From assembly GCA_038087875.1 (NCBI GenBank), contig CM075991.1, forward strand, positions 8,186,001 through 8,250,000: 64,000 bases of DNA. The letters are read 5' to 3'. The stretch is from Malacoraja senta. Lineage: Eukaryota. The position numbers and the translations under genes are program-made. The notes below the pieces were generated by a model, which saw only the letters and a program-made list of their open reading frames with translations, was not told the DNA's origin and searched no databases. This document shows, in pieces, positions 8,301 to 29,990 of this stretch; within the stretch, counting starts at the first letter, position 1; every line of letters begins with the position of its first letter.

Positions 8301-8893
8301 GGATGATGCACGATCCCATATCCCACTATCCCTGCACTTGTATGTGCCCGCCTAAAATCCTCTTCAACGTCACTTTCATATCTGCCCCCTTCACCCCCCC
8401 CCACGGTAATGTGTTCCTAGCCCCCGCCACTCTCTGTGTAAAAAAAACCTTCCCCCCTCTCACCTTATAGCTGTGCCCTCTAGTATTGGACATCTCCATG
8501 CCTCGCAGAATTTTATAAAATTCTCAACCTCCGACGTTCCAGGGAAAACATTCCCAGTCCGTCCAACCTCTCCCTGGATTTAAACCCTCCAATCCAGGCA
8601 ACGTTCGGGTAAACCTCCTCTGCACCATCTCCATAGCCTCCACCATTGATGGGGCGGCCTGGACTGCATGTGTTTCACCAAGTACAGCCCAACAAAAGTC
8701 CTATGGAGCTCACAGGTTCACGTTCATAAGCTCTAGGAACTGAATAAGGCCATTCGGCCCACCGAGTCTACTCCGCCATTCTATCATGTCTGATCCATCC
8801 TTCCCTCCCAGCCCCATTCTCCTTGCCTTTGTCCCCATAAACCCCCCGACACCCCCATACTAATCAGGACTACAGAGGAAGATGAGGATTTAC

Positions 8894-9603
8894 CTGCTGA
8901 TGTGGCAGCCAGTTGCTATTGCCATCTGTGTTCACCGGGTTGTCTCCATCCAAGATTTGGGGGTTAATCCCGGGCGGCTTCTGTTCAACTTTGGGGGCAA
9001 CAGGACGTGACTGGAGAAGGGCTCTTGGAGGAGCAGGAGGGGATCGAGTTCGAGACTCCCATCGATCTTCTCAAGCCCCTGCTGCAGGTGGCGTTGATGG
9101 ATCCCCAGACTCCACCGCCACCTCCACCTCCACCGCCGCCGCCTTGCTGCTGGTGGCCTCCCCAGTTGTACGCCCTGAAGGCTGCTGCTGCCCACTGAGC
9201 CCGTTCCTCTGGGTGAAGGTCGCTTGGTGGGGGTGTTGGTGCTGGCTAAGGGGCGACTGCCTGTGCTGCTGGGACAGCCCCATCTGATGGGCCGAAGGGA
9301 AGGTCCCTCCTCCGAAGAGAGGCCCCAGGTGGACCATCTTGGGTAGAAGCATGGCGGTGGGCAGGACCCTTTGTTGCAGAAGGTTCTCCTCGCCCGCCTG
9401 GCTGGTGGACCAGCCTAGGCTGTTGTGGGATGAGCCACTCCCTCCCAGATCCTGCAGCACCAAGTTGGCAGTGGTTGTGGTGGTGGCAGTCCAGCTGGGT
9501 GTTCCCCTCTCCACTCTGCACCTCTGCACCCTGGAACGGCTCCAGGTCGGGGCTCCAGATACGCGTTGCAAACGGCTTGTCTTTTGGTGTCATTCTGGAG
9601 CAT
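8894..9603 (-). CDS. CPEB3: First coding exon of a CPEB3-like gene (CPEB2/3/4 subfamily, low-complexity N-terminal region); four apparent -1 frameshifts in this assembly
   Basis: Polypyrimidine tract, then cag|ccATG (ATG 9603-9601); donor CAG|gtaaat at 8894. Joined frames give ...GWSTSQAGEENLLQ..AMLLPKMVHLGPLFGGGTF..QMGLSQ..RQSP..QATFTQR / ..VWGSINATCSRGLRRSMGV..SSK / KPFSSHVLLPPKLNRSRPGLTPKSWME / DNPVNTDGNSNWLPHQQ. This parallels recalled CPEB3 (WSTGTTNAVEDSFFQ..TMLFQNFPHHVNPVFGGTFSPQIGL..RRSP..KKPFSSNVIAPPKFPRAAPLTSKSWMEDNAFRTDNGNNLLPFQ). 710 nt + 4 = 714 nt = 238 codons, phase 0. Orthologue versus paralogue is unresolved. Confidence 0.85.
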
Positions 9604-9689
9604 GGCTGGAATTGGGCAGAAGGTGGGGGGGGGGGGAGAGGAGGAAGGGAAGGCAAATCCTTATATGAAACAAAAAGGAGGTGGCGGGT

Positions 9690-10596
9690 GAGAAGGGGAG
9701 AGGGGGTTGGTTGGTTGTGGATGGGAAGAGAGGAGGAGGAAGGGAATTCCTTATACTAAAGGAGGGGAGGGTGTTGGGGGGAGAGTGGAGAGGGTATGAA
9801 AGGAGAGGAGAGAAGAGGAATTTCTTGCAAAAGGAGGGTTGGGGGGGGAAGAGGGGAGGAGAGGAGAATGGGAGAAGAGGAGAGGTGAGAAGGAAAGAGG
9901 AATTCCTTGTAAAAAGGAGGAGAGGGGAGTAGGTTGGGAGGGAGAGGAGAGATGAGAAGGAAAGAGGAATTCCTTGTAAAAAGAGGGGGAGGGAGGTAGG
10001 TTAGGATTGAGAGGAGAGGAGAGATGAGAAGGAAAGAGGAATTCCTTGTAAAAAGGAGGAGAGGGGAGTAGGTTGGGAGGGAGAGGAGAGATGAGAAGGA
10101 AAGAGGAATTCCTTTTAAAAAGGGAGGGGAGTAGGGTTGGGAGGGAGAGAGATGAGAAGGAAAGAGGAATTCCTTGTAAAAAGGGGGGAGTGAGGTTGGG
10201 ATTGAGAGGAGAGAAGGAGAGGAGAGGAGAGGTGAGGAGAAGGAAAGAGGAATTCTTGTAAAAAAGGATTAGAGGTGGGGTGGTTGGGAGGGAGAGAGAG
10301 GAATTCCTTGTAAAAAGGGTTGGGGGGAAGAGGAGGGAGAATGGAGAAGAGGAGAGGTGAGAAAGGAAAGAGGAATTCCTTGTAAAAAGGGAGGGGAGGG
10401 AGGTAGGTTGGGAGGGAGAGGAGAGGAGAGGAGAGGAATTCCTTGTAAAAGGGGGTTGGGGGGAAGAGGGGAGGAGAGGAGAATGGAGAAGAGGAGAGGT
10501 GAGAAGGAAAGAGGAATTCCTTGTAAAAAGGTTGGGAGGGAGAGGAGAGGAGAGGAGAGGTGAGAAGTGGGGGGTTTGGAGGAGAAGGGAGAGGGT
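9690..10596. repeat. Purine-rich minisatellite (~55-65 bp unit with GAAGGAAAGAGGAATTCCTTGTAAAAAG core) in intron 1 of the CPEB-like gene
   Basis: About a dozen recurrences of GGAATTCCTTGTAAAA separated by G/A-rich spacers. Confidence 0.9.
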
Positions 10597-10599
10597 TAA

Positions 10600-11010
10600 G
10601 CCAAGCCTAGCCCAGTAACCCAGCCCGGCTCTACCCCCGGCGATCCTCGGCCACTGAGCTAGCTGCCCGGGTTGTGTAACAGCACAGTTTCAGCCAACGC
10701 CGCAACGAACGCACGAAACGACATGAAACTAACCTAGCAGCATAATGCGGGCAGCGCTGGTCCGCTGCCGCTGCCGCTGCTGCTGCCTCCGCTGCTGCTG
10801 TGTTGTGTTGTGTTGTGTGTGTCTGTCTCTGCGCTGTATGTGTGTGCTCGCGTTCTCTCTCCTTCTCTCCCGTCCCCCCTGTCCTTCCTCATCGATCGCA
10901 TCAAAATGGAATAACCAAGATCACAAGATTGTGTTTAATGACCCCACTCCTCGCCGCTTTACTCCGGAACTAAAGCTGCAACACTCCGGAGCATTCTGGT
11001 CGATTCAGAT
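10600..11010 (-). promoter_or_regulatory. CpG-rich promoter/TSS region of the CPEB-like gene
   Basis: Local CpG enrichment in non-repeat sequence around the putative first exon. Confidence 0.45.
10734..10880 (-). other. Putative non-coding first exon (5' UTR) of the CPEB-like gene
   Basis: CpG-rich unique sequence with (CAG/CGG)n-type repeats on the minus strand, ending at donor TAG|gttagt (10734/10733), about 1.1 kb upstream of the coding-exon acceptor. The upstream boundary is approximate. Confidence 0.55.
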
Positions 11011-11598
11011 ATTTTAATTACTCTCCCCTCTCTCTCTATTTAAAAAACCCTATGTTGCAAAACACTGCACCTGATCCGGCAATTTTAGCCCGTCAGTTCA
11101 ATTCAGACCCCGTGCAGAATTTTATTAATTTAAAAAAACAAAACACGTTTGACGTTTTTATTGACATTTCTGAAATGCATTGCAGTTTTTTTTTTGGTTT
11201 GCGCTCTTTGCTTCGGCGCAGTTCTGTGCCCAACCACCCCCACCTCAACACAGCCAGACTCATTGACATGGGAACACAAGGGGAGATGACGGCACAGAAA
11301 AAAAACAGGCCCTTCGGCCCACTGAATCCATGCTGGCCACCAACCCACACATCCACTTGCACCAATTTCTACATTGGTCTAATTTTTTTTTTTAAACTCA
11401 CCATATTCCAATCAAATCTCCCCCCCCCCCCACTTCCTACACCCTGGAGGCAATTTACAGTGCCCATTTAATGTGCCAACTGCTGGGATGCGGGGGAAAT
11501 CGGAGCACCCGGGGAAACCCACACGCTCACAGGGAGAACATGCAAACTCCACGCAGACTCTGCCTGAGGTCAGGATTAAACCTGGCTCTTCATAAATT

Positions 11599-11634
11599 CA
11601 GTCTGAAGAAGGGTCTCGACCCGAAACGTCGCCT
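11599..11634 (+). ncRNA. Minimal type I hammerhead ribozyme motif in a Penelope-derived repeat
   Basis: CTGAAGA-A-GGGT(CTCG)ACCC-GAAA-C-GTC at 11603-11630: intact core boxes, helix II, palindromic ACGT helix III and a GUC cleavage triplet. Helix I is only ~2 bp, so activity is uncertain. Confidence 0.55.
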
Positions 11635-14600
11635 ATTCCTTCCCTCCATAGATGCTGCCTCGCCCGCTGAGTTTCTCCAGCATGTTTGGTTTACTTCTTC
11701 ATAAATTCATATGTTCGGAAGTGATAGGAGCAGAATTAGGCCATTCGGCCCATCAAGTCTACTCCGCCATTCAATCATGGCTGGTCTATCTCTCTCTCCT
11801 AACCCATTCTCCTGCCTTCTCCCCGTAACCCCTGACACCCGTACTAATCAAGATCGAACTCTGCCTTAAAAATATCCAATGACTTATCCGCCACAGCCTT
11901 CAGTGGCAATAAATTCCACAGACTCGCCACCCTCTGACTAAAGAACGTCCTCCTCAGCTCCTTCCTAAAAGAACGCCCTTGGTCTCCGGCGCTGTGAGGC
12001 AGCGCTCTACCAGATGCGACACTGCACTGCCAGAGTATTTTCAACTCAACCAGTTCTGTTGCTGAATACGATGCAGTTATTATTTGCTGAGAGTTCGAGG
12101 CAGTCTGATGAAGGGTCTCGACCCGAAACATCACCTAATCCTTTTCTCCAGAGATGCTGCCTGACCCGCCGAGTCACTCCAGCATTTTGTGTCTATCTTT
12201 GGTGTAAACCAGCATCTGCAGTTCCTTCTCACACAGTTATCATTGCATTGCTGCTTGTGAGACGCTTGTGAGACAAATTGATTGAGTCATGACAATAGAC
12301 AACAGGTGCAGGAGTAGGCCATTCAGCCCTTCGAGCCAGCACCGCCATTCAATGTGATCATGGCTGATCATCCCCAATCAGTACCCCGTTCCTGCCTTCT
12401 CCCCATATCCCCTGACTCCGCTAGTTTTAAGAGTCTCCTACATTTTTCAGCAATGATTAAACTGCAAATGCTGTGCCAATGGACATAAGGCCATTGAAAT
12501 CTCCGCGAGGTGCTATATATAAATGGAAATCGTTTATTTTAACAATACATTTTTATTGTACAGGATGTGGCGAGGCCACATTTAGAGTATTGGGTTCAGT
12601 TCTGGGCACCATGTTAGATGAAAGGTGTGGTTAAACTGGAAAGGGCGCAGAGATGATTCACGAGGATGTTGCCAGGACTCGAGGGCCAGAGCCACAGGGA
12701 GAGGTTGAGCAGGCTTTGGCTCTATTCCTTGGAGTGAAGGAAGATGAGGGGGGATCTTATAGAGGTGTGTAAGATCATGAAAGGAATAGATAGGATAGGT
12801 AGAGGCGCTGTTGTGCCTCTACCTATGTTGTGATAGTACCAGCCTCACCTACCCTCTCCGGCAGCTCGTTCCATACACCCACCACCCTTTGTTATTTAAA
12901 ATTTGCCCCTCAGGTGAAAATGCCACAGGTAAAAATGTTGCCCCTCATTTTAGTTGTTGTTGTTGGTAGAACTCTAACCTTCCCTCGGTGGGGATTTGCT
13001 CAGCTAAAATAACACATTAATAAATTTGCAATCTATCAATTAAATCAATAAAGGCAGGCCATTCTACAGCTATGTGGGTGCCACATAGCTCCTGCACTGC
13101 CTTGTGGGAGTTGGAGTGTTTGTATGCTTACACCAGAGGAAGTGACAGAGGCACGAGACAAACTAGAGCTCCCAGCAAGCAGCTGCCTGGCACCAGAGTT
13201 TCCTTGTAGTTCCTGATATTAGCTGACGTAATGACCCGAGCCGGTCATAGCTCACACACACCCTCTTTGACACAGCGCATTTTAAAGGGCCAATGTCCAC
13301 AACCCAATCCATGTTTCTTCACAGATAGAGTGGATGTTTCCACTAGTGGGAGAGTCTAGGACCAGAGGTCGTAGCCACAGAATTAAAGGACGTTCCCTTA
13401 GGAAGGAGATGAGGAGGAATTTCTTTAGTCAGATGCTGGTGAATCTGTGGAATTCATTGCCACAGAAGGCTGTGGAGGTCAAGTTAAGGGATATTTCTAC
13501 GGCAGAGATAGATAGACTCTTAGACACAAAAAGCTGGAGTAACTCAGCGGACGGGCAGCATCTCTGGAGGGAAGGAATGGGTCGAGACCCTTCTTCATTA
13601 GATTCTTGATAAGTACGGATGTCAGGGATTATGGGGAGAAGGCAGGAGAATGGGGTTAAGAAGGAGAGATAGATCAGCCATGATTGAATGGCGGAGTAGA
13701 CTTGATGGCCTAATTCGGCTCCTAGAACTTATGGACAAAGCAAACATTGATCAAGTTCATTTGAAGCATTGCTCCTTACTAACGCTACCTAGATCATTGT
13801 TATCATGCCTTTGTTTGTGGGATCTAGAATTCCTTCATCGCAGTGGTGTCCCCACTTTAAAAAGTGAACCAAAGCCATTAAATACATGATTTATAAAGGG
13901 AGGTGCAGCGACGCAGCGGTAAAACTGTAAGCCTGGGTTCAGTCCTGACTACAAGCGCTGTCAGTGTGGAGTTTGCACGTTCTCCCTGTGACCGCATGGG
14001 TTCTCCGGATGCTCCAGTTTCCTTCCACACCCCAAAGACGTATAGGTTTGTAGGATAGTTGGCCTCTGTAAATTGCCCCTAGTGTGTATGAAATAGAATT
14101 AGTTGGTCAGCATAGACTCAGTGGGCCAAAGGGCCTCTTTCCATATCATATCTCCTCTACGTTCTAACCTCTATACGTATTCTTTCTTTCCTAAATTGGC
14201 AGTAAATATATATCGGGCGGCGCAGTGTCGCAGCTGCTAGAAGTACTACCTCACAACAGATATCCAGGTTCGATCCTCAACTCGGGTGCTGTCTGTGTGG
14301 AGTTGGCAGGTTTTCCTTGTGACCGCGTGGGTTTCCTCTGGGTGCTTTGGGTTCCTCCCCGTCCCAAAGGCGTGCGGGTCTGTAGGTTAATTGACTCTGT
14401 AAATTGTAGGGAGCGGATGAGAAAGTGGGATATAGAACTAGTGTGAAATGGGTGATCAGTGATTGGTGTGGTCTCCGTGACTGAAGGACTCAGTCACCGT
14501 ATATTCGAGATTTTAATAGGAACCTGAGGGGTAAAATTTTCACACAGAGGGTGGTAGCTGTATGGAACGAGCTGCCGGAGGAGGTAGTCGAGGCAGGTGC

Positions 14601-14759
14601 TATCACAACATTTAAGAAACATTTGAACAGGTACATGGATAGAACAGGTTTAAAGGGATATGGGCCAAAGGTACATAGTTGGGACTAGTGTAGATGGGAC
14701 ACGTTGGTCGGTGTGGGCAAGTTGGGTCAAAGGGCATATTTCCACGCTGTATGATTTAA

Positions 14760-15072
14760 GTTTTAGTATTAGGGATACAGCACGGAAACAGGCCCTTCGG
14801 CCCACCGGGTCCTCGCCGACCAGCGATCCCGCACATTAACACTATCCTACACCCACTACGGACAGTTTTTACGTTTACCAAGCCAATTACCTACAAACCT
14901 GTACGACTTTGGAATGTGGGAGGAACCGAAGATCCGGGGAAAACCCACGCGGGTCACAAGGAGATCGTACAAACTCCGTACAGACAGCACCCGCAGTCGG
15001 GATCAAACCCAGGTCTCCGGCGCTGCATTCGCTGTAAGGCAGCAACTCTACCGCAGCGCCATCGTGACTGCC
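14760..15072 (-). mobile_element. HE1-type V-SINE
   Basis: Reverse complement of the 3583-3915 family, full length. Confidence 0.85.
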
Positions 15073-17014
15073 CTTATTTAATTAGATTTTATGACTTTAA
15101 ATAAAGAGATTACAAATTCTGGGATTACAAGAATTTACTGATAATGCCAAAATACTCCTTAAAGGATTGAAGAAACTGTACGCATTACAACCGAAAATGA
15201 ATCTCTAAATATGCAGCTTTGATTGAACTGACTGATTAAAAAAAACATGTAATATTCATTTTCAAATGCTCTTAATAGCTAAATCAAATACCCTTTAATG
15301 GACCAGAAGAGGGATATGGGCCAAACGCAGGCAGGTGGGACTAGTGTAGATGGGACATGTTGGTCGGTGTGGGCAAGTTAGGCCAAGGGCCAAATTCCAT
15401 GTCGTTTTCTTAGTTTAATTTAGAGATACAGCGTGGAAACAGGCCCTTTGGCCCACACTGGCCAGTGATCCCCGCATGTTAAAACTATCGTACACAAACC
15501 AGGGACAATTTTACAGTTATATTGAGCCAATTAACCTACAAACCTGTACGTCTTTGGAGTGTGGGAGGAAACTGAAGATCTTGGAGAAAACCCACGCAGG
15601 TCACGGGAGAACGTACAAACTCCCTACAGATCCTGGAGCTGGCACGAGGGAGCAGGCGTTAAAAGGCTGACGCATGCTTCTATCTTTTGTTCCCTACCAG
15701 AACATGTCTTATTTATTTGGCAGTATAAGCAGCAAATAGTTGTCACTGAACCAGCAAACAGATGTCCAGATCAATGTTCTGCAGTCATAATTCAAATGTT
15801 AGCCTGGAATGTAATTTGTTAAATTTTATTAAGTTTTTAAAAAGCCCATAATTAATGGTGACCGCGAAGGCCCATACTCTTCACCCTCTCTTGTTTGGAC
15901 ATCCCTTCCAAGCCAGGAATTACCTTGGGGAATCTCCTTTGGACTGCCTCGAACACTTCTATGTGTGGGAAGGAACTGCAGATGCTGGTTTAAACTGAAG
16001 GTAGACACAAAATGGTGGACTAACTCAGCGGGGCAGACAGCATTTCTGGAGAGAAGGAATGGGTGATGTTTCGGGTCGAGACCCTTCTTCTGTCGCAACA
16101 TGAAACGTCATCCATTCCTGCTCTCCAGAGATGCTGTCTGTCCCACTGAGTTACTCCACCATTTTGTGTCTATCTCCAACACTTTTGTGTTCCATTTTAG
16201 GTAAAGTGGCCACAACTGTGCACAATATTGCAGGAATGTCCTCACCAACATTCCTCGCAAGTTCAACCAAACCTATAAACTCTGACCATTTTCCAATAGA
16301 AACCAAAATACCAATTGCCTTCTTAACTACTTGTTGGATCTGCCTGAATTACTTGTGATTGATGCATTAGTTCACCTGGGGCCCTCTGAACCTCACTCAT
16401 TTGCACAGTCCCCCTTCATTTAAGCCACTGTTTGTTTCACCTTCCCGAAGTGCGGAATCTTACGTTTAAGACCATTTGCCAGTGTTTCACCCAATCATTA
16501 AATCTCAGGTTCATAATGTCCTCACCATAACATTCATCTGCGTTCATTTTTGTATCATCAGTAAGCTTGAGAAGCCTTACTTACATTTTGTTCCATCCTT
16601 CCAGACATTAACTGCTCCCTGGTACCCTGGTATATATATATATGTGTGTGTGTGGGAAAGAATTGCAGATACTGTTTTTAATCGAAGGTAGACACAAAAC
16701 ACTGGAGTAACTCAGCAGGACAGGCATATATAAGTCTGCAAAGTTTGCTGCGAATGACTGAAGAAAATCTCATAAGAATATTGATTCTAAGAGAAAATGT
16801 ATATAATATAAGGGTCTGAAGAATGTTGCCTATTTCCTTCGCTCCATAGATGCTGCCTCACCCGCTCAGTTTCTCCAGCATTTTTGTCTACCTTCGATGT
16901 TCCAGCATTTGCAGTTCCTTCTTAAATATAATATAAAACAGCTATGTTTATGTGAATATATATACACACACGCACACACACATATATGTGTATATATTTT
17001 AAAAAAATGTTTGA

Positions 17015-17935
17015 ATGCTATTTATTGCCATTCAAACCAAGGCTTGAACGAAATTTCATTACTACAGTTTTTTACATTACAAAAAAAAACAAGACCCACA
17101 CTTAACACAGTTTACATAAACATCCATCACAGTGAGTCTCCAACACCTCCTCACTGTGATGGAAGGCAAAGTCTTATCTCTTCCCTTTTATTCTTCACCC
17201 GCGGTCCAACAGTAGCGTCTAGGCGAACTGGGGCTCCGGTGTTAAAGCCCCCGGCGGACGATGGTAAGTCCTGTGGCCATTTAGCCACGCCGGGCGATGC
17301 CAGGCCCCGGCTCCGTGTCCTTTAAACCCCGCGGTCCAACTGCAGCGTCTAGGCGAACTGGGGCTCCGATGTTAGAGCCCCCTGCGGGCGACGGTAAGTC
17401 CCGTGGCCGCTAACCCGCGCCGGGCGATGTTAGGCCTCGCTCCGTGTCCTCCAAACCCCGCGATTCCAGCGGGAGAAGTTGCCGTTGCGGGAGCTCCGAA
17501 AAGCCGTCTCCCACCAGGGACCTGGAGCTCCCGATGTTCCTGTCCACCGGGCCCGCAGCCGGAGCTTCCGAAACTCCAAAGTCGGGTCGCAGCCGAGCGC
17601 CACCACAGCTCTCCCCGCTCCAAAGCCGGCCAGCTCCGCGATGTCAGGTCCCAGGCTCCGCGACTGGAGCCCTCAGGCTGGTCCCGGCCGGAGGCCGCCG
17701 CCGGCTCCACGATGTTAGGCCCAACGACATCGGAGATCCGACAGGGAAAAAGTTGGGTCCCCGTACAGGGAAGAGACTAACGGTTTCCCCAACATCCCCC
17801 CCTCCACCCCCCACATATACACAGCTAAAAAATAATAAAAACTAAGCTCAAGACATACATTTAACAAGACAAAAATTTAAAAAAAGACGGACGACTGTAG
17901 TCGAGCCGCTGCCGTTAGGCTCCACCACACCCACA
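17015..17935 (-). mobile_element. GC-rich non-autonomous retroposon with Rex-like tail and an internal 130-bp tandem duplication
   Basis: Reverse complement is homologous to 32418-33036; duplicated units start at 17198 and 17328; AATAAA tail at ~17021. Confidence 0.75.
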
Positions 17936-18267
17936 TTATGCACACACATACAAATATGCACACACATACATATATAATATATATGTACATTCTTCTGTTG
18001 CAACTGTAAACTCCTACCTCTCCAGGGACTAACTTTACTGAACCAATTTACTGTTGTGTGGTGTTTTTTTAAAATTGCTGTTTTGTTCCTTTTTCTTCCC
18101 TCCCTCCCTCCCTCCAACAAATATGTGAGGTGAATATGTGATTCTGTTTGTAGTTTGTTTTTTGCACAATTCGCAAGCATCGCCACTTTTCATTTCATTG
18201 CACATCTCGTATGTGTATGTGATAAATAAACTTGACTTGACTTGACATATATATACACTTTATGTGA

Positions 18268-18300
<33 letters not shown>

Positions 18301-19322
18301 TGTATATATGTGTATACAGTATATATTCACGAACATTTATAGCTGTGTTTAATATATGTGCTTCTTTCAGAATCAATTTTCTAATGAGATTTCCAGTCAT
18401 TTGCAGGAAGCTTTAGCAGATTTCTATCCTGCCACCCTGCCCTTGCCACTTTAAATGCCCTACTTTTCTATTTAACGTTCCGCTTCACTGACCTCCTTTG
18501 CCGACCAGATTGTGCCCCTCTCTCATGCAATCCTTCTTTTTAATTGGGATAAATTCCAGCCAAGCATTATCGTCCGGATTTTTTTCATCCGGATATCTGC
18601 CACTGTTGGTCGACCGGCCTGTCTCTTGGCTTATTGTTTCCAGTCCACCTCAGACAACGCCACCTTTATCCCATTATAATTGCCCTTATTTCAGTTGAAG
18701 ACTGACTGGGAAAACTACCAGCTGAGCACACACCAGGTTAACCTGGCATAGGTACTGCATTGAAATGAGTCAAGAAATACACTGCCAGAATATTTACTGA
18801 AACTTTAAAAAATATATTTAATTTGGTTAAGTCACATTAAATATTTATATTAAAATGTATGAAATATTAGTATATTATTCAATTTTAATTAAAAAGTGTT
18901 CTAAAATAGTTAATTGATTTATTTTAAACAGGTCCTGAATGATTGCACATGTTTGTAAAAAGAGTGTTAAAATGCAGAGTTTTGCCTGGGAAATTGGGAG
19001 CGGTTTAGGTCCTGACCTTGTTTTGTTGGCCTTCAATTTTGTTCCTTCCTCTCAGTAACTTAGCTCAATGACCAGCCTTGACTTGCAAAACCTTGCTTGA
19101 GCCCTCATGGTTAGACTCAATGGTAATCCTGGTTCAAACTCAATGCCGTCGTTGTTCGGTCCTCTTTCCAACATGCATCACTCGATAGTACACACTAACT
19201 GGGTTATTTGCTTATATTTCAGGATTACAGCAAACATGTCTGAGACCGGGCTGGGCATTAAACTAGATGCCTAGAGAGGCACTTGGGCGGTAGTATGGCA
19301 CCGCGGTAGAGTTGCTGCCTTA

Positions 19323-19607
19323 AGCCCCTGTCCCACGATGCGAGTTTACCCAAGAGCTTTCCCGAGTTTAAAAAAAAAATCAAACTCGTGGTACTTCATC
19401 ACGAGTATTATTTTACTCTTGGAAATTTTTCACACTGTTGAAAAAACTTACGAGTTTCCGCGTTTCCCGAGTACCTGTCGTTAGCGTTACGAGCCGCTAC
19501 GAGACATCCACGAGCTCCGACGTACCCGCTACGTACTTACCACGAGTTTGATTATTTTTTTAACTCGGGAGAGCTCTTGGGTAAACTCACATAGTCGGAC
19601 AGGGCCT
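19323..19607. mobile_element. PIF/Harbinger-type MITE (family B) inserted in a SINE head
   Basis: Long TIRs (CCCTGTCCCAC..GAGTTTACCCAAGAGCT..CCCGAGTT); TTA duplicated at 19320-19322 and 19608-19610, splitting SINE sequence GCTGCC-TTA-yAGCGCCAG. Confidence 0.85.
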
Positions 19608-20356
19608 TTATAGCGCCAGGGATCCTGGTTCGATTCTGACTATAGGTGCTCCCCATACGTTCTCCCCGTGACCTGCATGGGTTCTCTCCGGAAGCTCCAG
19701 TTTCCTACCACACTCCAAAGACGTACAGATTTATAGGCTACTTAGCTTGGTAAAAGTGTAAATTGTCACGAGTGTGTGTAGACTGCTGGTTGGCGAGGAC
19801 TCGGGGGGCCTGTTTCCACGCTGTATCTCCAAACTACACTAAACTAAATAAATTAATAGAATATTTAAACACTATAATCCACTGGTACGTCACCGGATCA
19901 AACCAGTAGACCTTAGCACTTGTAACCTCATCTGTAAGATGAGCCTTCAGCTTCCTACACTACAAAGATTAAAGTTCTAGCCTATCCAATCTCTCCCTAT
20001 AGCTCAAGCTGAGTCCTGGCAATATCCTTGTAAATCATCTTTGCACCCATTCCAGATTAATGGCATCTTTCCCACAGCAGGGTGACCAAAGCAGAACACA
20101 ATACTCAAAGTGCAGGTTCACCTTGTACAAGTGAAACATAATGTCCCAGCAACCATACTCAGTTTCTTAACTGATGAAGGACGATGTGCCAAAAGCATTT
20201 CTAACTGTGCCACCACATTCATGGAATCATGTACTTGCACTCCTAGATCCTTAGCTGGATGAAACTCCCCAGGGCCCTATTGTTCACCGCGAAATCCTGC
20301 GCTGGCTAGATGTCCCAAAATACAACACCTCACACTTTGACTGATAGAGCATGGAA

Positions 20357-20782
20357 CCTCTCCGTGGATTGTCACCTTGACGTGGTGGAGAAGCTTGTGA
20401 GGACCTGAGATCCTGAGAGCGATGCCGTCTGGAGCTATGCTCCTGGCAGGGCCACCCATGGCGGTAAGGTCAAGGGGGAGGTCTCTGACAAAGAGCAATC
20501 CAACCACGGTGGAACAGGCGGAGGACGATGGCTGACCTTAGTGGAGCGTCACAACGGCTGGGAAGGCGGATGAAGGCTGCAGCAGAAAAGGGTCTCCGGT
20601 CGTCTTGGACTCCATGCCACTGGATCCTGACCCAGATCTGTCAAGGACCGTGGGGTGGCTGTCTGTGCACCAGTCTCCCCATGTTAAACAAAGTCACGCA
20701 CAGGCGTCCTTCATATAGGGAATAGCACCCTGGGTACACCCATGGTCAGCCATGAACGAAGGGGGGCTAAGAAAGAAGAAAT
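20357..20782 (+). mobile_element. Bipartite RTE-derived non-autonomous retroposon
   Basis: The 5' part resembles the recalled BovB/Sauria-SINE RTE 5' UTR (CACCTTGACGTGGTGGAGAAGCTTG..AGGGCCACCCA..GGTCA..TCTGACAAA). 8-bp TSD gcatggaa at 20349-20356 and 20783-20790; GAA-rich tail. Confidence 0.7.
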
Positions 20783-21270
20783 GCATGGAAACAGGCCCTT
20801 CTGCCTACTTACACCATCGATAACACTAGTTCTGTTATCCCACTTTTGCCTCTACTCCCCACATACCAGGGGCAATTTAATGAAGCCAATTAACCTACAA
20901 ACCTGAAGATAGGACACAAAACGCAGCGGGACAGGCAGATAGAAGGAATGGGTGACGTTTTTGGGTCGAGACCCTGCTACACACCGTACAAACCCGCACG
21001 TCTTTGGGATGTGGGAAGAAACCCGGAGCTCCCAGAGGAAACCCATGCGGTCACAGGGAGAACGTGCAAACTCCACACAGACAGCACCCGAGGTCAGGAT
21101 CGAACCGGGGCCTCTGGCGCTGCGAGGCAGTGGCTCTACCAGCTGTGACACGGTGTAAAGAGAGATAAAGAAGAAAGAGTGTGCGACTGTTAATGTTTTA
21201 GAAATATCCCAAATTAATTTGCTTGACTGGTTAAAATGGAGCAGAAGGACAATCAATTCAGAGATGGCAT

Positions 21271-21276
21271 TTTATT
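21271..21276 (-). terminator. Polyadenylation signal AATAAA of the MARCHF5-like gene
   Basis: tttatt on the + strand at the end of the AU-rich block. Confidence 0.55.
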
Positions 21277-22035
21277 CAATTAAACCTCCAGAATCCTTAT
21301 TTTTCACCAGCTATATTATTCCAAACAGCTTTATATAAATAAAAAATAAACACATTTTACAGCAATTATGGTCATTGTCATGGCAGCATGCAAAAGAAAT
21401 GTAATTAAAAATAAATTTTCTACAGATAAAAAGAAATGAAGATTCTGTAAATTTGTGAAACTGTAATATTCTGCTTTTAAAATGTACATAAAATGATCTT
21501 GGTTTTTACGCTGCACAATTTTAGCGTGGTGCTCGCGGGCGAGGTTGAAAGTGCTGTTCCAGCACACAAGGTCAGTCGATGCAAGATCCTTGCCTGATGC
21601 AAGGATCTTGGAGCTATCCGCATGGTAGCCAATGTACTGAGCACAGATTGTGAACAGGTTTGTGAAGCTCTGGTTCATTGCCAACTTTAACTGTGCTCCT
21701 GCCTCATTTCTGTTCTCGGTTTTGACCCGAGATATCACAATGTGCGGGAAAAAAATTCAGAGTCTGAACTTCCAACACAACCCGGCAGCTGAGCGGAGCC
21801 ACGGGTAGACTCCCCAGTTCTTCGCTCTTGGGGCAAGTTTGCAACCCGACGGGGCACCAAATTTGAACGACTGCCTATCTGAACGACTGTGGGTATATGA
21901 CTGAGCTTCGGCACGAGGGGTGGAAAACGATAGGATTATCCTGCTTTTAATACAGCCAGAGACAAAGGGCCTTGTTGCAGTAAAAAAGGTATTACACAGA
22001 CACACACAACCTCGAGCAAGAATGTTTCCACCTGC

Positions 22036-22340
22036 ATGTTTCCACTAGTGGGAGAGTCTAGGATCAGAGCATACAGCCTCAGAATACCAGGACAAACCTT
22101 TGGGAAGGAGACAAGGAATTTCTTTAGTCAAAGGGCGGTGAATCTGTGGAATTCATTGCCACTGAAGGCTGTGGCGGCCAAGTCATTGGATATTTTTAAG
22201 ACAGAGATCGATCTCGATTAGTATGGTGTCATTGGTTATGGGGAGAAGCCAGGAGAATGGGTTAGGAGAGAGAGATAGATCAGCCATGATTGAATGGCGG
22301 AATGGGCTTGATGGGCCGAATGGCCTAATTTTGCTCCACC
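22036..22340 (+). mobile_element. CR1 3' fragment inside the MARCHF5-like 3' UTR (antisense)
   Basis: MFPLVGESRIRAYSLRI..NFFSQRAVNLWNSLP. Confidence 0.85.
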
Positions 22341-22712
22341 AAATTATGAACAAGGACCAACAAGGACTTGGGGAAAGTAGGTTAGGGAGAGCGGCTGAGA
22401 GCTTGAGCTGGATACTGCTCGGGGGTGACGTCAGGAAGTTGTTTCGTGGCATTAGCCCAAAGTAGTCCCCTAGCTACTAAATCATAATACGAGCAATCGA
22501 AGGAGAAACCAGCAGTTTAAAAAGTATCTGTCCAACAACAAGCTGACGGGGTGACTGAACTCCACTGGGCTGGTTGCAGACACCAGTGAATGTGGCCACA
22601 GCGCACGCCCGACGCAAGTGGGGTAATGTCAAATGCCAATTCCAGCAATCACGAGAGTGGGACGTAAACCGGGTCTGCGTCGTTCCTGACAACCAATCTC
22701 TCGCTCTCTCTT

Positions 22713-22871
22713 CTAGTCACTTCCCGAGTCTTCGTAGGCCTCCTGCGTATCCTCCTGTTCCTCTTCCCTCTCGGGGTAGTTGAGAATGCGGCGATTGGCT
22801 TGGATGAGGTACTGCTGTTGCCGGAAGTAAACCTTTAAAGCCCCTTTGATAGCGACAAAGGCAATCCCTCC
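22713..22871 (-). CDS. MARCHF5: MARCHF5-like, last coding exon (not shown in this frame by the ORF track)
   Basis: ttgcag|GGA GGG ATT...; encodes GGIAFVAIKGALKVYFRQQQYLIQANRRILNYPEREEEQEDTQEAYEDSGSD* (TAG 22715-22713) versus recalled human GGIAFVAIKGAFKVYFKQQQYLRQAHRKILNYPEQEEA. Phase 0 fits the preceding exon. Confidence 0.95.
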   Translation of the reverse strand, partial: GGIAFVAIKGALKVYFRQQQYLIQANRRILNYPEREEEQEDTQEAYEDSGSD

Positions 22872-23057
22872 CTGCAACGAGAATAATTACAACTAAACAA
22901 GGCCAAGCAGGTGAATGATGCTCTGAAGATTTAAACAACATCGGCAGTGACGACTCTTCCCTTAAGATATTTCCCTTCAGATTATTTCCTTTTTTCCCCC
23001 ATGCTGCCAACCCTTCTGTCCCACTGGAATTGTCAGATATTACAGCACAGCAGTCTT

Positions 23058-23430
23058 TTGAAACATATAAGATTGTTAAGGGCTTGGACACGCTAGAGGC
23101 AGGAAACATGTTCCCGATGTTGGGGGAGTCCAGAACCAGGGGCCACAGTTTAAGAATAAGGAGTAAGCCATTTAGAACGGAGATGAGGAAACACTTTTTC
23201 TCACAGAGAGTGGTGAGTCTGTGGAATTCTCTGCCTCAGAGGGCGGTGGAGGCCAATTCTCTGGATACTTACAAGAGAGAGCTAGATAGGGCTCTTAAAG
23301 ATATCGGAGTCAGGGGATATGGGGAGAAAGCAGGAACTGGGTACTGATTGGGGATGATCAGCCTTGATCACATTGAATGGCGGTGCTGGCTCGAAGGGCC
23401 AAATGGCCTACTCCTGCACCTATTGTCGAT
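23058..23430 (+). mobile_element. CR1 3' fragment (young subfamily)
   Basis: ETYKIVKGLDTLEAGNMFPMLGESRTRGHSLRIRSKPFRTEMRKHFFSQRVVSLWNSLP; nearly identical to 41930-42320 and 49980-50297. Confidence 0.9.
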
Positions 23431-24443
23431 AATAGAAAAGTGTTGGAAGGCGCCAGTCAGCATCTGGAGAACAGGGATAGGCCATGTTGCAGATCAGGAC
23501 CCTTCTGCAGACCAGACCGGAAACATCACCTATCCATGTTCTCCAGAGATGTTGCCTGATCCGCTGAGTTACTCCAGCACTCTGTGTCTTTGTGAGAGAC
23601 TCATGTAGGGCGTGGCCACTGTTGAGAAGGTTGGAGAATGTGCACCAGCAGGAAATTCACCCGCTGGGGTCTCCCTCTCCTCATCTGTCAGCACCTCAAA
23701 CCGCATGTACCTAGGTACAGTGAAGTGCTTTGATTTGCATACAACCTGGTAAAATCAGACCGAAGACCTCACCTGGGCAGTGCACAAGTGTGGCTAGGTT
23801 TCTGGGGCAGACAAAAGTTCACCGAACCGTCCTACCTACTCCCCGCCACTCTACATCAGAAGGAAATGGAGTAGAATTAGGCCATTCGGCCCATCAAGTC
23901 TACTCCGCCATTCAATCATGGTTGATCTATCTCTCCCTCCTAACCCCATTCTCCCGCCTTCCCCCAATAACCCCTGACACCCGGACCAATCAAAAATCTA
24001 TCTAGCTCTGCCTTAAAATTATCCACTGACTTGACCTCCACTGCCTTCTGTGACAAAGAATTCCACAGATTCACCACCATCTGACTAAAGAAATGTCACC
24101 TCATCTCCTTCCTAAAAGAACGTTCTTTAATTGCTCTCGGCGACCCCACCCCCCCAACCCCAGCTGGGCCCCTCTTTGTTCTCAGCGCCCCCCACTCTGT
24201 TCCACCCCCTCCCCCCTCCCCCCTCCCCCTCCCGCCGAGTGGTGGCCCTCCACACTCTCGGCCAGGCGATTGGGAGCAGGAATCCTGGCCGGCTCTTTGT
24301 CCCCTCTCACCCAGCGAAATTAAGGCCAACCAGCGCACCCTACCCCAGTCACGCAGAACGGCCAAGGACCGAGGTATCGATGGTTCCTCTCCACCTGGTC
24401 GTCCCATTAGTATTTCATTCAGAAAAGGGGCCAGGTGAATTCA

Positions 24444-26075
24444 AGTCAAGTGAGTTTATTGTCATGTGTCCCAGATAGGACAATGAAATTCTTGCTTGCT
24501 GCAGCACCACAGAATATTGTAGGCATGAATACAGAACAGATCAGTGTGTCCATATACCATAAATATATATATACACACACATAAATAAACAGATAAAGTG
24601 CAATAGGCTGTTATAGTTCAGAGTTTGTTTGAAGTTGTGTTTAATAGCCTGATGGCTGTGGGGAAGAAGCTGTTCATGAACCTGGATGTACCAGATTTCA
24701 GGCTCCTGTATCTTCTACTTGAAGGCAGCGGGTAGATGAGTGTGTGGCCAGGATGGTGTGGGTCCTTAATGATGCTGGCAGCCTTTTTGAGGCAGCGACT
24801 GCGATAGATCCCCTCGATGGTGGGGAGGTCAGAGCCGATGATGGACTGGGCAGTGTTTACAACTTTTTGTAGCCTTTTCCGCTCCTGGACGCTCAAGTTG
24901 CCGAACCAAGCCACGATGCAACCGGTCAGCATGCTCTCTACTGTGCACCTGTAGAGGTTCCAGAGAGTCCTCCTTGACATACCGACTCTCCGTAATCTTC
25001 TCAGGAAGTAGAGGCGCTGATGTGCTTTCCTTTTAATTGCATCAGTGTTCTGAGACCAGGAGAGATCTTCGTAAATATGCACGCCCAGGAATTTGAAGTT
25101 CTTGACCTTTTCCACCATCGACCCGTTGATATAAACGGGACTGTGGGTCCCTATCCTACCCCTTCCAAAGTCCACAATCAGTACCTTGGTTTAGCTGGTG
25201 TTGAGGGCCAGGTTATTGTGCTGGCACCATATGGACAGTTGCTCGATCTCTCTTCTATACTCTGACTCGTCCCCATCAGTGATACGTCCCACAACAGTGG
25301 TGTTGTCGGCGAACTTGATGATGGAGTTCGCACTATGTCCGGCTACGCAGTCATGAGTATAGAGTGAGTACAGCAGGGGGCTGAGCACGCAGCCTTGAGG
25401 TGCTCCCGTGCTGATTGTTATCGAGGATGACACATTTCCACCAATACGGACAGACTGTGGTCTGTGAATGAGGAAGTCGAGGATCCAATTGCAGAGGGAT
25501 GCGCAGAGACCCAGATCTGAGAGCTTGGTAACCAGCTTGGAGGGGATGATGGTATTAAATGCTGAGCTGTAATCAATGAATAACAGCCTGACATATGCAT
25601 ATGAGTTTTTGTTGTCCAAGTGGTCCAGAGCGGAGTGGAGGGCCAGTGAGATCGCATCCACCGTTGATCTGTTGTGGCGGTAAGCGAACTGCAGTGGGTC
25701 CAGGTTTTTGTCGAGGTACGAGTTGATCTGCGTCATGATCAGCCTCTCAAAGCACTTCATCACCACAGGCGTTAGTGCCACTGGTCGATAGTCATTGAGG
25801 CACGTCACCTTGTTCTTCTTGGGCACCGGTATAATTGATGCCCTTTTAAAGCAGGTGGGAGCCTCAGACCTCAGAAGTGAGAGGTTGAAAATGTCCGTAA
25901 AAACTCCAGTCAGTTGGTCTGCACAGGTTTTTAGAACACGACCGGGTATACCATCAGGTCCAGGCGCTTTGCGAGGGTTCACCCTTCTGAAGGATATTCT
26001 GACGTCGGCCTCTGTGACTGTGACCGAAATACCATCACGGCGAATGGGGGCTCGGGAAGGCACATCAGTGTTTCA
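24444..26075 (-). mobile_element. 5'-truncated Rex1/Babar-clade LINE (reverse transcriptase), inactivated
   Basis: ORFs 25191-26063 and 24618-25175 carry [63 protein letters not shown] (DD to DN), FKFLG and QRLYFLRRL. In-frame stop at 25191-25193; 3' AATAAA plus (CTTGA)n tail; candidate TSD GAATTCA at 24437-24443 and 26076-26082. Confidence 0.92.
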
Positions 26076-27103
26076 GAATTCATCACCTAACCTTCGCTTG
26101 GGTGGTGTTGGGAAGCAACCATGGAATCAGAAGTTTCCAAACCAAATGACCAATGGTTGCAACATGGTTATGCTCCCAGACTCAGTCCTGGAGCCTCGAT
26201 TAGCAGTGACTGATGATCCCAAGTTCAAATACAAATCACTAAATCGGGGTTACTAAAATTCATTTTGTTAAATGACTTGCCAATAAAAGGCTAGTTATTT
26301 GCAGTGGTAGCCACACAGCAACCACATTATCAGAGCTACAAGAAGGAAACTGGCCCTTCGTCCCATCGAGTCTGTGCCGATCATTAACCCCCCCCTTTAC
26401 ACTGAGACAGCCCAAACCCATTTTATTCTTTCCCCATTAAATCACCCCACATTCTAGCACTCACCTTCACACTGGTAGCAATTTACAATAGGCCGAAGAT
26501 CGACACAAAATGCTGGATTCACTCAGCAGGACCGGCAGCATCTCTGGAGAGAATGAATGGGTGACGTTTTGGGTCGAGACGAGGGGTTACTCCAGCTTTT
26601 GGAGTCTGTCTTCGGTTTAAACCAGCATCTACAGTCCCTTCCTACACATTTACAATAACTCATTGATCTACCAAGCCACATATTTTTGGGGATGTGGGAA
26701 GAAACCAGAGCACGCAGTGGGATCTCGTATGGTCACAAGAACATTTGGACTCCGGAGGCTAGGATTGAACCTGGAGCACTGGGAGTTGAGGCAGTACCGC
26801 CACTCGTGTACTTAGGGGAAGCTTAAGAGCGTTTTTCACGGAACAGATTGCTTTGCAGAAACTCAAGTAGCAAGGAGCTAAATGTCTGTCCGATCTATTT
26901 TTAGTGGAGTTGATTAAGGAAGGAACGCAAGACAGCAACTGGGAGACGCGGGTTGGTCCTCCTTCCAGAAGACCACATGGAGAAACAAGGAACTGCAGAT
27001 GCTGATTGAAATGGCAAAGTGACATTGGGAGAAGGAAGAACGGTGAAAGGAGACACGGGCATCTGCAGATGCTGGTTTACAAAGTTCTAGAGTAACTCGG
27101 CGG

Positions 27104-27482
27104 CAAAGATCCTATAGCGGAGCAAGATAGACCACTCCTGCTAAATGCAATGGGCTGACGTGTAGTACGCAACGGAGCGGAAGGTGGGCCTTTTTTTCGT
27201 CCATTTCAGTAACCCGACCCGACCCGCAGTGTAATCAACGTTGCGGGGGAACAGTTTGTGTTAATAAATTATAATTCTGAAAATGAGAAGATTTTTACCA
27301 AAGAACTTTTATTTTTACGAGGATGTTTCCGTAACCGGCTTCCGTGTCCGCACTAGCACCGCTTTGGTGCGGAGACGGAAACCGGTTACGGAAATGGGGC
27401 CGAAAATTACCCACGAATCTGCCCATGACCGTACTACGTCTTTTTCGTCGAGTGATCCATCTTGCTCGCTATAGGATCTTTG
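27104..27482. mobile_element. hAT-type MITE
   Basis: ~33-bp TIRs CAAAGATCCTATAGCG(G)AGCAAGAT..; 8-bp TSD ctcggcgg (27096-27103) / ctcagcgg (27483-27490); interrupts a PLE-derived repeat. Confidence 0.88.
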
Positions 27483-28139
27483 CTCAGCGGGTCAGGCAGC
27501 ATCTCCGGAGAACATGGATAGGCAATATTTCAGTTCAGGACCCTTCTTCAGACAGACGGTGGTGGGGGAAGAAAGCTAGGAGAGAGGAGGACAAAGCGTG
27601 GCAAGTAATAGGTGGACACAGGCAAGGGGGTGGGTCTTGATAGACGGATGGTTGAACAAAGGTCGGAGATCAGAGATTAAATCAGGTGGGAGACAAAAAG
27701 GATTGAAGAGTTGTGAACTGTGAAGCCAGAGGAAAGAATGTGGGTGGAAGGATAGGGGCGAAATAGGAGTTGCGGTGGGGCACAGGGGGAGGAAGGGGAT
27801 GGGGAGGTGGGTTGTAACCTCCCCATCCCCATGTTTAGTTTAGTTTAGAGATACAGTGCAGAAACAGGCCCTTTGGCCCACCGAGTCCGTACCGACCAGC
27901 GATCCACGCATATTAACACTATCCTACACTAGGGACAATGTTTACATTTATACCAAGCCAATTAGCCTGCAAACGGAAGATCTCTGAAACCCACGCAGGT
28001 CATTGGGAGAACGTACAAACTCCGTACAGACAAGCGCCCGTGGTCAGGATCGAACCCGGGTCACTGGTGCTGTAAAGCAGCAACTCTGCCTCTGCGCCAC
28101 TGCGCCGCCCTCATGAAAGAGACAGGATTGCACTCTCAC

Positions 28140-28306
28140 CAAGATAGTTCGCTGCAGATTGGAGCTGACGCTGCTGAATATTAATTTGCCGACCAGGCTG
28201 GAGATGGTTGGGAAGACGAGCGCGCCGCACAGGATGCGGGAGATGGACGCGTGGTCACTTCGGTAGTGCGCGTCGGCAGGTGTGCGAGGAATGGGGCATC
28301 CAAAAC
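28140..28306 (-). CDS. MARCHF5: MARCHF5-like E3 ubiquitin ligase, penultimate coding exon (167 nt)
   Basis: ttag|GT TTT GGA...ATC TTG|gtgaga; encodes (G)FGCPIPRTPADAHYRSDHASISRILCGALVFPTISSLVGKLIFSSVSSNLQRTIL versus recalled human GIGCPVPRIPAEANPLADHVSATRILCGALVFPTIATIVGKLMFSSVNSNLQRTIL. Confidence 0.95.
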
Positions 28307-29790: not shown

Positions 29791-29990
29791 NNNNNNNNNN
29801 NNNNNNNNNNNNNNNNNNNNNNNNNNNNNNNNNNNNNNNNNNNNNNNNNNNNNNNNNNNNNNNNNNNNNNNNNNNNNNNNNNNNNNNNNNNNNNNNNNNN
29901 NNNNNNNNNNNNNNNNNNNNNNNNNNNNNNNNNNNNNNNNNNNNNNNNNNNNNNNNNNNNNNNNNNNNNNNNNNNNNNNNNNNNNNNNNN
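29791..29990. other. Assembly gap (200 N)
   Basis: Run of exactly 200 N; the round number suggests a placeholder length. Confidence 1.

Follow-up and report, generated by a model that had tools for sequence, protein, structure and literature searches.

The stretch analysed here, a window of 64,000 nucleotides of Malacoraja senta (assembly GCA_038087875.1, contig CM075991.1, positions 8,186,001 to 8,250,000), carries part of a CPEB gene which is a real, conserved and apparently undescribed fifth CPEB of vertebrates, together with part of a MARCHF5-like gene. CPEBs control when mRNAs are translated. The basis for this assignment is the separate clade of the gene, its chromosome position, its splicing in relatives and its conserved RNA-contact residues. 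The locus is very probably the fourth ohnologue of the CPEB2/3/4 ancestor and its MARCHF5 neighbour from the two rounds of vertebrate genome doubling (2R). The parts of the two genes found in the window are:

8894..9605, minus strand: large first coding exon of the extra CPEB, found by tblastn (acceptor AG at 9607-9606, ATG at 9603, donor GT at 8893).
10734..10900 (5' end approximate), minus strand: upstream 5' exon of the CPEB gene, ending in ATG-CTG-CTA-G, followed by GT.
22871-22713, minus strand: last coding exon of the MARCHF5-like gene, GGIAF...YLIQANRRILNY...EDSGSD, with stop TAG at 22715-22713 and AG/GT sites; 98% identical to Leucoraja XP_055518230.
28306-28140, minus strand: penultimate coding exon of the MARCHF5-like gene, found by tblastn, with AG/GT sites; 98% identical to Leucoraja XP_055518230.

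The tblastn E-values are 1e-62 for the CPEB exon and 1e-31 and 1e-28 for the two MARCHF5-like exons, so the matches are not due to chance, and the named proteins closest to the window exons are those of skates (98%). Both genes are on the minus strand with CPEB downstream. A preliminary description of this DNA had identified the MARCHF5-like gene and the common strand correctly and had estimated the distance as about 12 kb; from the MARCHF5-like stop to the CPEB ATG we measure 13,110 bp. When joined to position 9605, a splice suggested by the protein match, the upstream 5' exon would give the MLLAMLQND start of the Leucoraja isoforms X1 and X3 and of the Amblyraja model.

The chromosome position of the extra CPEB comes from the little skate, Leucoraja erinacea. 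Its contig in Leucoraja is 15,576,883 bp long, which is the exact end of Leri_35C in Supplementary Information (SI) Table 8 of Marletaz et al. 2023 (PMC10115646). In the rows used of SI Table 10 of the same work, Leri_35C holds March5-2 (8.95 Mb), Fgfr1-2 and Tia1, while Leri_15C holds March5-1 (4.48 Mb), Btaf1 (4.69 Mb), Fgfr2-2 and Tial1. Cpeb2 is listed on Leri_1C and Cpeb4-3 on Leri_11C, and the name Cpeb4-3 suggests that their pipeline saw several such genes. According to SI Table 3, LER15, LER35, LER1 and LER11 are the 1-alpha, 1-beta, 2-alpha and 2-beta copies of linkage groups I/Q. The extra CPEB is thus found on the 1-beta copy with March5-2, Fgfr1-2 and Tia1, the position of a 2R ohnologue. 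In these tables chromosome 35 is the sister of chromosome 15, which agrees with the sister block from genome duplication proposed in the preliminary description. One CPEB2-type gene on each of the four chromosome copies is the prediction of two genome doublings. Furthermore, beta segments are reported to evolve faster in the sections used of Marletaz et al. 2023 (PMC10115646), and the long stem of the extra CPEB clade fits this. The pair itself is widespread. Both genes are on contigs of equal size in 13 of 13 species with both shown (five other species are not comparable), and consecutive or near-consecutive accessions are observed in Leucoraja, Mobula, Chiloscyllium punctatum, Mustelus, Heptranchias and Scyliorhinus torazame.

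The extra gene is distinct from the four known CPEBs. Accessions for CPEB1-4 and TIA1 are given in Supplementary Table 1 of Vaglietti et al. 2025 (PMC11965684), the columns of which were taken from the PDF layout and checked by matching CPEB3 accessions. In this table the CPEB1, 2, 3 and 4 accessions of Amblyraja all differ from XP_032869711 of the extra gene, and the CPEB2, 3 and 4 accessions of Leucoraja and Hypanus differ from the extra-gene models of these species. Canonical CPEB3 is on another contig than the extra CPEB in all seven species with both placed (Stegostoma, Rhincodon, Heptranchias, Mustelus, Narcine, Pristis and Heterodontus). Two trees were calculated, a quick tree of 44 rows and a careful tree of 22 rows (LG+G4, no mixture model), with rows hand-picked for taxon spread from 420 proteins. 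The extra CPEB forms its own clade (support 100/100); its stem is long (0.65-1.12), and the branches within the clade are short. CPEB2 (100/98), CPEB4 (100/100) and CPEB3 (93/99) form the other clades, and the last one includes shark and chimaera CPEB3 with human CPEB3. The approximately unbiased (AU) test under the careful-tree model, for which the tool reported 5 false rejections in 71, rejects descent from elasmobranch CPEB3 (p 0.006) or from chondrichthyan CPEB3 (p 0.019). The extra gene is therefore not the CPEB3 orthologue, since a separate shark CPEB3 groups with human CPEB3, and different accessions and different chromosomes in the tabulated little-skate data separate it from CPEB2 and CPEB4. 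A phylogeny had been proposed in the preliminary description; it yields the clade apart from CPEB2/3/4 but does not name the sister gene.

The longest frame of the CPEB exon matched 6 proteins among 385 candidates, all from sharks or rays. The clusters of these proteins contain models from at least 18 named elasmobranch species, in which the gene is intact. The complete models have 558-576 aa and carry NCBI labels of CPEB2-like or CPEB3-like. The RefSeq models XP_055518226-9 and XP_032869711 are the same gene as in the window (98% identity in the exon, same neighbour), and their names are automatic labels under which a separate paralogue went unrecognised. Among the best 120 of 1614 matches in a full-protein search, five elasmobranch matches have 920-1362 bits and the next one 707. 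Outside the elasmobranch group, no protein among the 420 has more than 2 of 11 signature motifs. Amblyraja XP_032869711 (414 aa) passes directly from the first exon to where RRM1 ends and lacks the exons between; the likely cause is a gap in the assembly or annotation of this locus in that skate.

The MARCHF5-like gene has a broader distribution. The last-exon search gives 52 matches among 58 candidates (59-98% identical), and those with a name are labelled MARCHF5, MARCHF5-like or 'membrane-associated ring finger 5, like'. All of the about 15 last-exon matches whose ends were shown have the acidic tail, and the full-length MARCHF5-like relative has a RINGv domain. The ending YLIQANRRILNY with an acidic tail, from which the preliminary description had recognised the MARCHF5-like paralogue, is indeed seen in the last exon. 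Its 98% identity is to the Leucoraja MARCHF5-like protein on chromosome 35, and two March5 loci are tabulated for little skate. Beyond fishes, matches are found in coelacanth, lungfish, caecilian, tuatara, lizards, snakes and turtle, also in chimaera and sharks, and none of the 52 is from birds or mammals. A passage of a review calls one trout MARCHF5 duplicate fish-specific. In contrast to such a copy, the acidic-tailed matches here extend from coelacanth and lungfish to caecilian and reptiles. Compared with marchf5l of fishes, the shark and ray locus has one more feature, namely that a CPEB gene follows.

In the assembly the CPEB exon is not open. It had been reported as a short CPEB3-like exon of 238 codons with an open frame. 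The exon itself holds, but its assembled ATG-to-donor length is 710 nt, which is not divisible by three, each of the three frames contains stops, and the coding signal hops frames at five indels that had been missed:

near 8944, 9021, 9181, 9475 and 9549, minus strand: five frameshifting indels in the CPEB exon.
9801..10564, strand unspecified: tandem repeat rich in GA/CT, with a unit of about 67 bp, in the first CPEB intron and directly beside the error-bearing exon.

Read piecewise, six stretches of the exon give 228 of 232 residues (98.3%) identical to residues 1-236 of L. erinacea XP_055518227. The exon encodes most of the low-complexity N-terminal region and has 236-237 codons in error-free copies. 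It is only mildly short, with 236 codons in the Leucoraja protein against 252-253 in the matching exon of shark and ray CPEB3. The frameshifts were checked in contigs of 4 sequencing runs out of 24 (X1, X2, X7 and X11, from four studies and four organisms). All four runs have one base more at 8944, 9021 and 9181 and one base less at 9549. At 9475-9476, run X1 has one base less and runs X2, X7 and X11 have four bases less. The corrected exon is 711 nt (X1) or 708 nt (X2 and X7), both multiples of three; X11 has further in-frame gaps. Since the five indels are absent from all four runs examined, they are most likely assembly errors, and the gene would be functional. The one-base gains and losses sit at or beside short runs of one base. 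GA-rich tandem repeats lower long-read coverage. In runs X7 and X11, contigs depart from the window sequence at 8893 and continue with Leucoraja's next residues, EWTQPYDTFN; this junction indicates that the gene is spliced in two other organisms, the evidence being the spliced contigs themselves, as none of the 24 runs is on record as RNA and these two are only guessed to be. The spliced contig of X11 also extends through the region upstream of the acceptor (9606-9700), which suggests a second start site or a retained intron end.

The RNA-binding part of the protein is encoded in exons outside the window and was studied in full-length relatives, in one of which Pfam RRM_7, RRM_1 and CEBP_ZZ score above cut-off. 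The best PDB match is RRM1-2 of CPEB4 (E 2.5e-112), with 379 bits to CPEB4 versus 181 to CPEB1. A low-complexity N-terminus followed by RRM1-RRM2-ZZ and one large first coding exon are shared with CPEB3 (and with CPEB2 and CPEB4, the subfamily of Drosophila Orb2), a SLENSL-type helix before the RRMs with CPEB2-4, and a MARCHF5-type neighbour with CPEB3. Between shark and ray copies of the extra gene, identity in the RNA-binding region is 97-99%; it is 85-86% to CPEB3 and 84-85% to CPEB2 or CPEB4, against 94-99% among CPEB2-4 themselves and 99% between human CPEB3 and that of sharks and rays. Of the 263 columns of this region, 31 differ from CPEB2-4 in every one of the 11 copies aligned. These fixed changes include RR to CC on helix 1 of RRM1, and several are located on RRM helices (326-331, 367, 439 and 481; secondary structure from a predicted model). 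RRM helices face away from the RNA-binding sheet, and the changes may alter partners. Afroz et al. 2014, in the portion used here, name CPEB4 residues for RNA contact or domain positioning. Twenty-three of these were compared and 21 are identical in the extra gene, the others being conservative (E131D and I144V). R152, a marker of CPEB2-4, is kept, as are the nine Cys/His residues of the ZZ domain. With 21 of 23 contact and positioning residues kept, binding to the cytoplasmic polyadenylation element (CPE) is probably intact. In the Leucoraja isoforms X1 and X2, RRM2 and the ZZ linker are separated by six additional residues, adjoining the CPE-adenine pocket, which probably arise from an alternative splice site.

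The N-terminus is disordered, with 9-10% Q and 11-12% G and a predicted local distance difference test score (pLDDT) below 50 for residues 1-248 and 260-303. The predicted structure is poor (mean pLDDT 44) and of low confidence outside RRM1, and is used for secondary structure and disorder only. A lead from the ESM Atlas on residues 1-300 (0.79) was weak and is not used. According to the part of Duran-Arque et al. 2022 considered here, CPEB2-4 are switched by many proline-directed phosphorylations (ERK/Cdk1), which dissolve their condensates. By motif count, 25 extra-gene sequences have 2-6 serine/threonine-proline (S/T-P) sites before RRM1; the counts for CPEB3 of sharks and rays (7 sequences), CPEB4 (two) and CPEB2 (four) are 10-12, 15-16 and 19-32, respectively. 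The density is 0.6-2.0 per 100 residues, against 2.5-4.4 in CPEB2-4. Thus, by this count, the many phospho-sites of the CPEB2/3/4 subfamily are not found in the extra gene. None of 26 extra-gene models has the GRRR microexon segment, a lack that may reflect tissue sampling, whereas 6 of the 7 full-length CPEB3 models of sharks and rays contain it. These two features, together with its location on another chromosome, distinguish the gene from CPEB2-4. Loss of the MGDYG-type N-terminal extension was considered as a trait shared with CPEB3 and dropped, as 6 CPEB3 models carry that start. Some CPEB3 models (pig, primates, coelacanth) start with MGDYGF as CPEB2 and CPEB4 do, ahead of the usual MQDDLL.

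From its sequence, the extra gene is likely to act in CPE-binding translational control. Its RRM1-RRM2-ZZ would bind U-rich CPE elements in 3' untranslated regions like CPEB2-4, and translation would be repressed or activated through poly(A) control, in condensates of the disordered N-terminus. Given its few proline-directed sites and the changed outer helix of RRM1, the protein probably has other partners and another mode of switching than CPEB2-4. That the protein is a largely unswitchable repressor is a doubtful proposal drawn from the motif counts. The more complete picture is tentative to a similar degree: jawed vertebrates would have started with five CPEBs, and the fifth, strongly constrained in sharks and rays, would bind CPEs and would have mostly lost the ERK/Cdk1 switch and remodelled its RRM1 outer face. 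With partners of its own, it might then repress translation or compete with CPEB2-4 while being hard to switch.

As to origin, the two genome doublings would have produced four copies of a block holding the CPEB2/3/4 ancestor and the adjoining MARCHF5. The extra copy would be the one on the 1-beta chromosome of I/Q (little-skate 35, chicken 22, the FGFR1/TIA1 chromosome). Both genes would have persisted in sharks and rays, and bony vertebrates appear to keep only MARCHF5-like, in some lineages. Several points weigh against this account. Human CPEB3 has MARCHF5 and BTAF1 as neighbours and is head-to-head with MARCHF5; by this order, and by March5-1 and Btaf1 there, CPEB3 would lie on Leri_15C. 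CPEB2, CPEB3, CPEB4 and the extra gene form a polytomy, with AU p-values of 0.44, 0.35 and 0.47 for CPEB3, CPEB2 and CPEB4 as sister, and the AU test also keeps a place outside CPEB2/3/4 (p 0.20). The trees are without shark CPEB2 or CPEB4 sequences and have only four CPEB4 rows, and no canonical MARCHF5 was among the sequences. The separate CPEB1-4 genes are those of other skates. No copy was found in chimaera or bony vertebrates among the best 120 of 1614 matches or the 420 proteins, and a bony-fish paralogue, which the preliminary description mentioned as having been proposed, has no counterpart in these proteins or in the open-access literature. Binding and a role in translation are read from sequence.

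An old segmental duplication of the CPEB3-MARCHF5 pair onto the FGFR1 chromosome, before the jawed-vertebrate split and independent of genome doubling, would agree with a tree that cannot place the extra CPEB and with the tandem order here versus the head-to-head order in human, which implies a rearranged block. This explanation is improbable. The copy would have landed on the one of the four chromosomes without a CPEB2-type gene, which is the published 2R sister of chromosome 15, and other pairs of chromosomes 15 and 35 (Fgfr2/Fgfr1 and Tial1/Tia1) show the same pattern. For the 2R ohnologue, the tandem order requires one local inversion.

Even if the ohnologue is right, its CPEB copy might be a pseudogene in the window's animal or species, as five frameshifts in 710 nt stand against none in the two MARCHF5-like exons (326 nt together). 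Run X1, the closest one (4 substitutions in 841 bases against the window, three of them adjacent), may be from another individual or species. However, all five indels are missing from it and from the other three runs, each of a different organism. Neutral decay would not give five indels with only 4 amino-acid changes, and both the single-base runs at the indels and the adjoining GA-rich repeat speak for errors, so that a pseudogene is very unlikely. That the two genes are simply the CPEB3 and MARCHF5 orthologues after divergence and a local inversion is a reading that could appeal to the CPEB3-like labels of some copies and to the RNA-binding region being slightly nearer to CPEB3. It is refuted by the separate CPEB3 of sharks and rays, nearly identical to the human protein in this region and grouping with it, and by the two March5 genes on different chromosomes in the little-skate tables. 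The preliminary description had asked for separate canonical loci and had named their absence, with canonical grouping, as fatal to its proposal. Such loci exist: CPEB1-4 in skates, CPEB3 on another contig and the second March5.

Beyond the listed exons, no further exon of CPEB or MARCHF5-like was found in the window (motif search, tblastn with full-length relatives, splice-partner motif). As tblastn matches only the CPEB exon and the two MARCHF5-like exons, the remaining CPEB exons are beyond the left edge of the window, and the first about four MARCHF5-like exons are beyond the right edge or missing from the assembly. A scaffold gap of 200 N is located at 29791-29990, and the penultimate MARCHF5-like exon follows about 1.5 kb downstream of it. 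The next 34 kb upstream are without an earlier MARCHF5-like exon by tblastn, which means an intron of more than 35 kb or exons that are missing or misjoined. Self-repeating sequence makes up about 44% of the window and leaves the three exons free; the repeats include a broken long interspersed element (LINE), many short interspersed repeats and microsatellites. Rfam gives 0 matches in the window, and Pfam gives no match on the four exon pieces alone. The LINE is part of neither gene:

24618..26072, minus strand: broken LINE fragment (reverse transcriptase, Pfam RVT_1, E 1e-25) within the last intron of the MARCHF5-like gene.

A search of the open-access literature, a scope that leaves out most subscription journals, gave no account of a fifth CPEB or of the CPEB/MARCHF5-like pair, and the supplements of PMC8302630, all but one file, have no CPEB or MARCH5 row. 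Duran-Arque et al. 2022 state, in the text considered, that all vertebrates have four CPEBs, and the 571-species survey (PMC11965684), as far as consulted, sampled sharks and rays for four CPEBs only. The portions used of Marletaz et al. 2023 (PMC10115646; preprint bioRxiv 2022.03.21.485123) report 19 ohnologues kept only in chondrichthyans and name wnt6b and cspg5 among differentially kept genes. CPEB is unnamed in the main text and the searched supplement rows and may still be among their 19. The extra CPEB resembles these chondrichthyan-only ohnologues in being a faster-evolving copy on a beta chromosome. Retention of ohnologues in sharks is already known, so the surprise is limited. The sources used also include PMC4083092, PMC9465852 and PMC4897099.

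For users of sequence databases, the shark models named CPEB2-like or CPEB3-like should not be taken as orthologues of CPEB2 or CPEB3, and this assembly alone would make the gene look dead. A fifth intact CPEB occupies the one vacant place in the FGFR1-4 chromosome quartet, the fourth, and shows the set of the jawed-vertebrate ancestor. The extra CPEB is a natural variant with conserved RNA contacts and few switch sites. If the poorly switchable reading is true, it would offer a natural experiment on the way in which CPEB output is set by the phospho-switch and by condensates.

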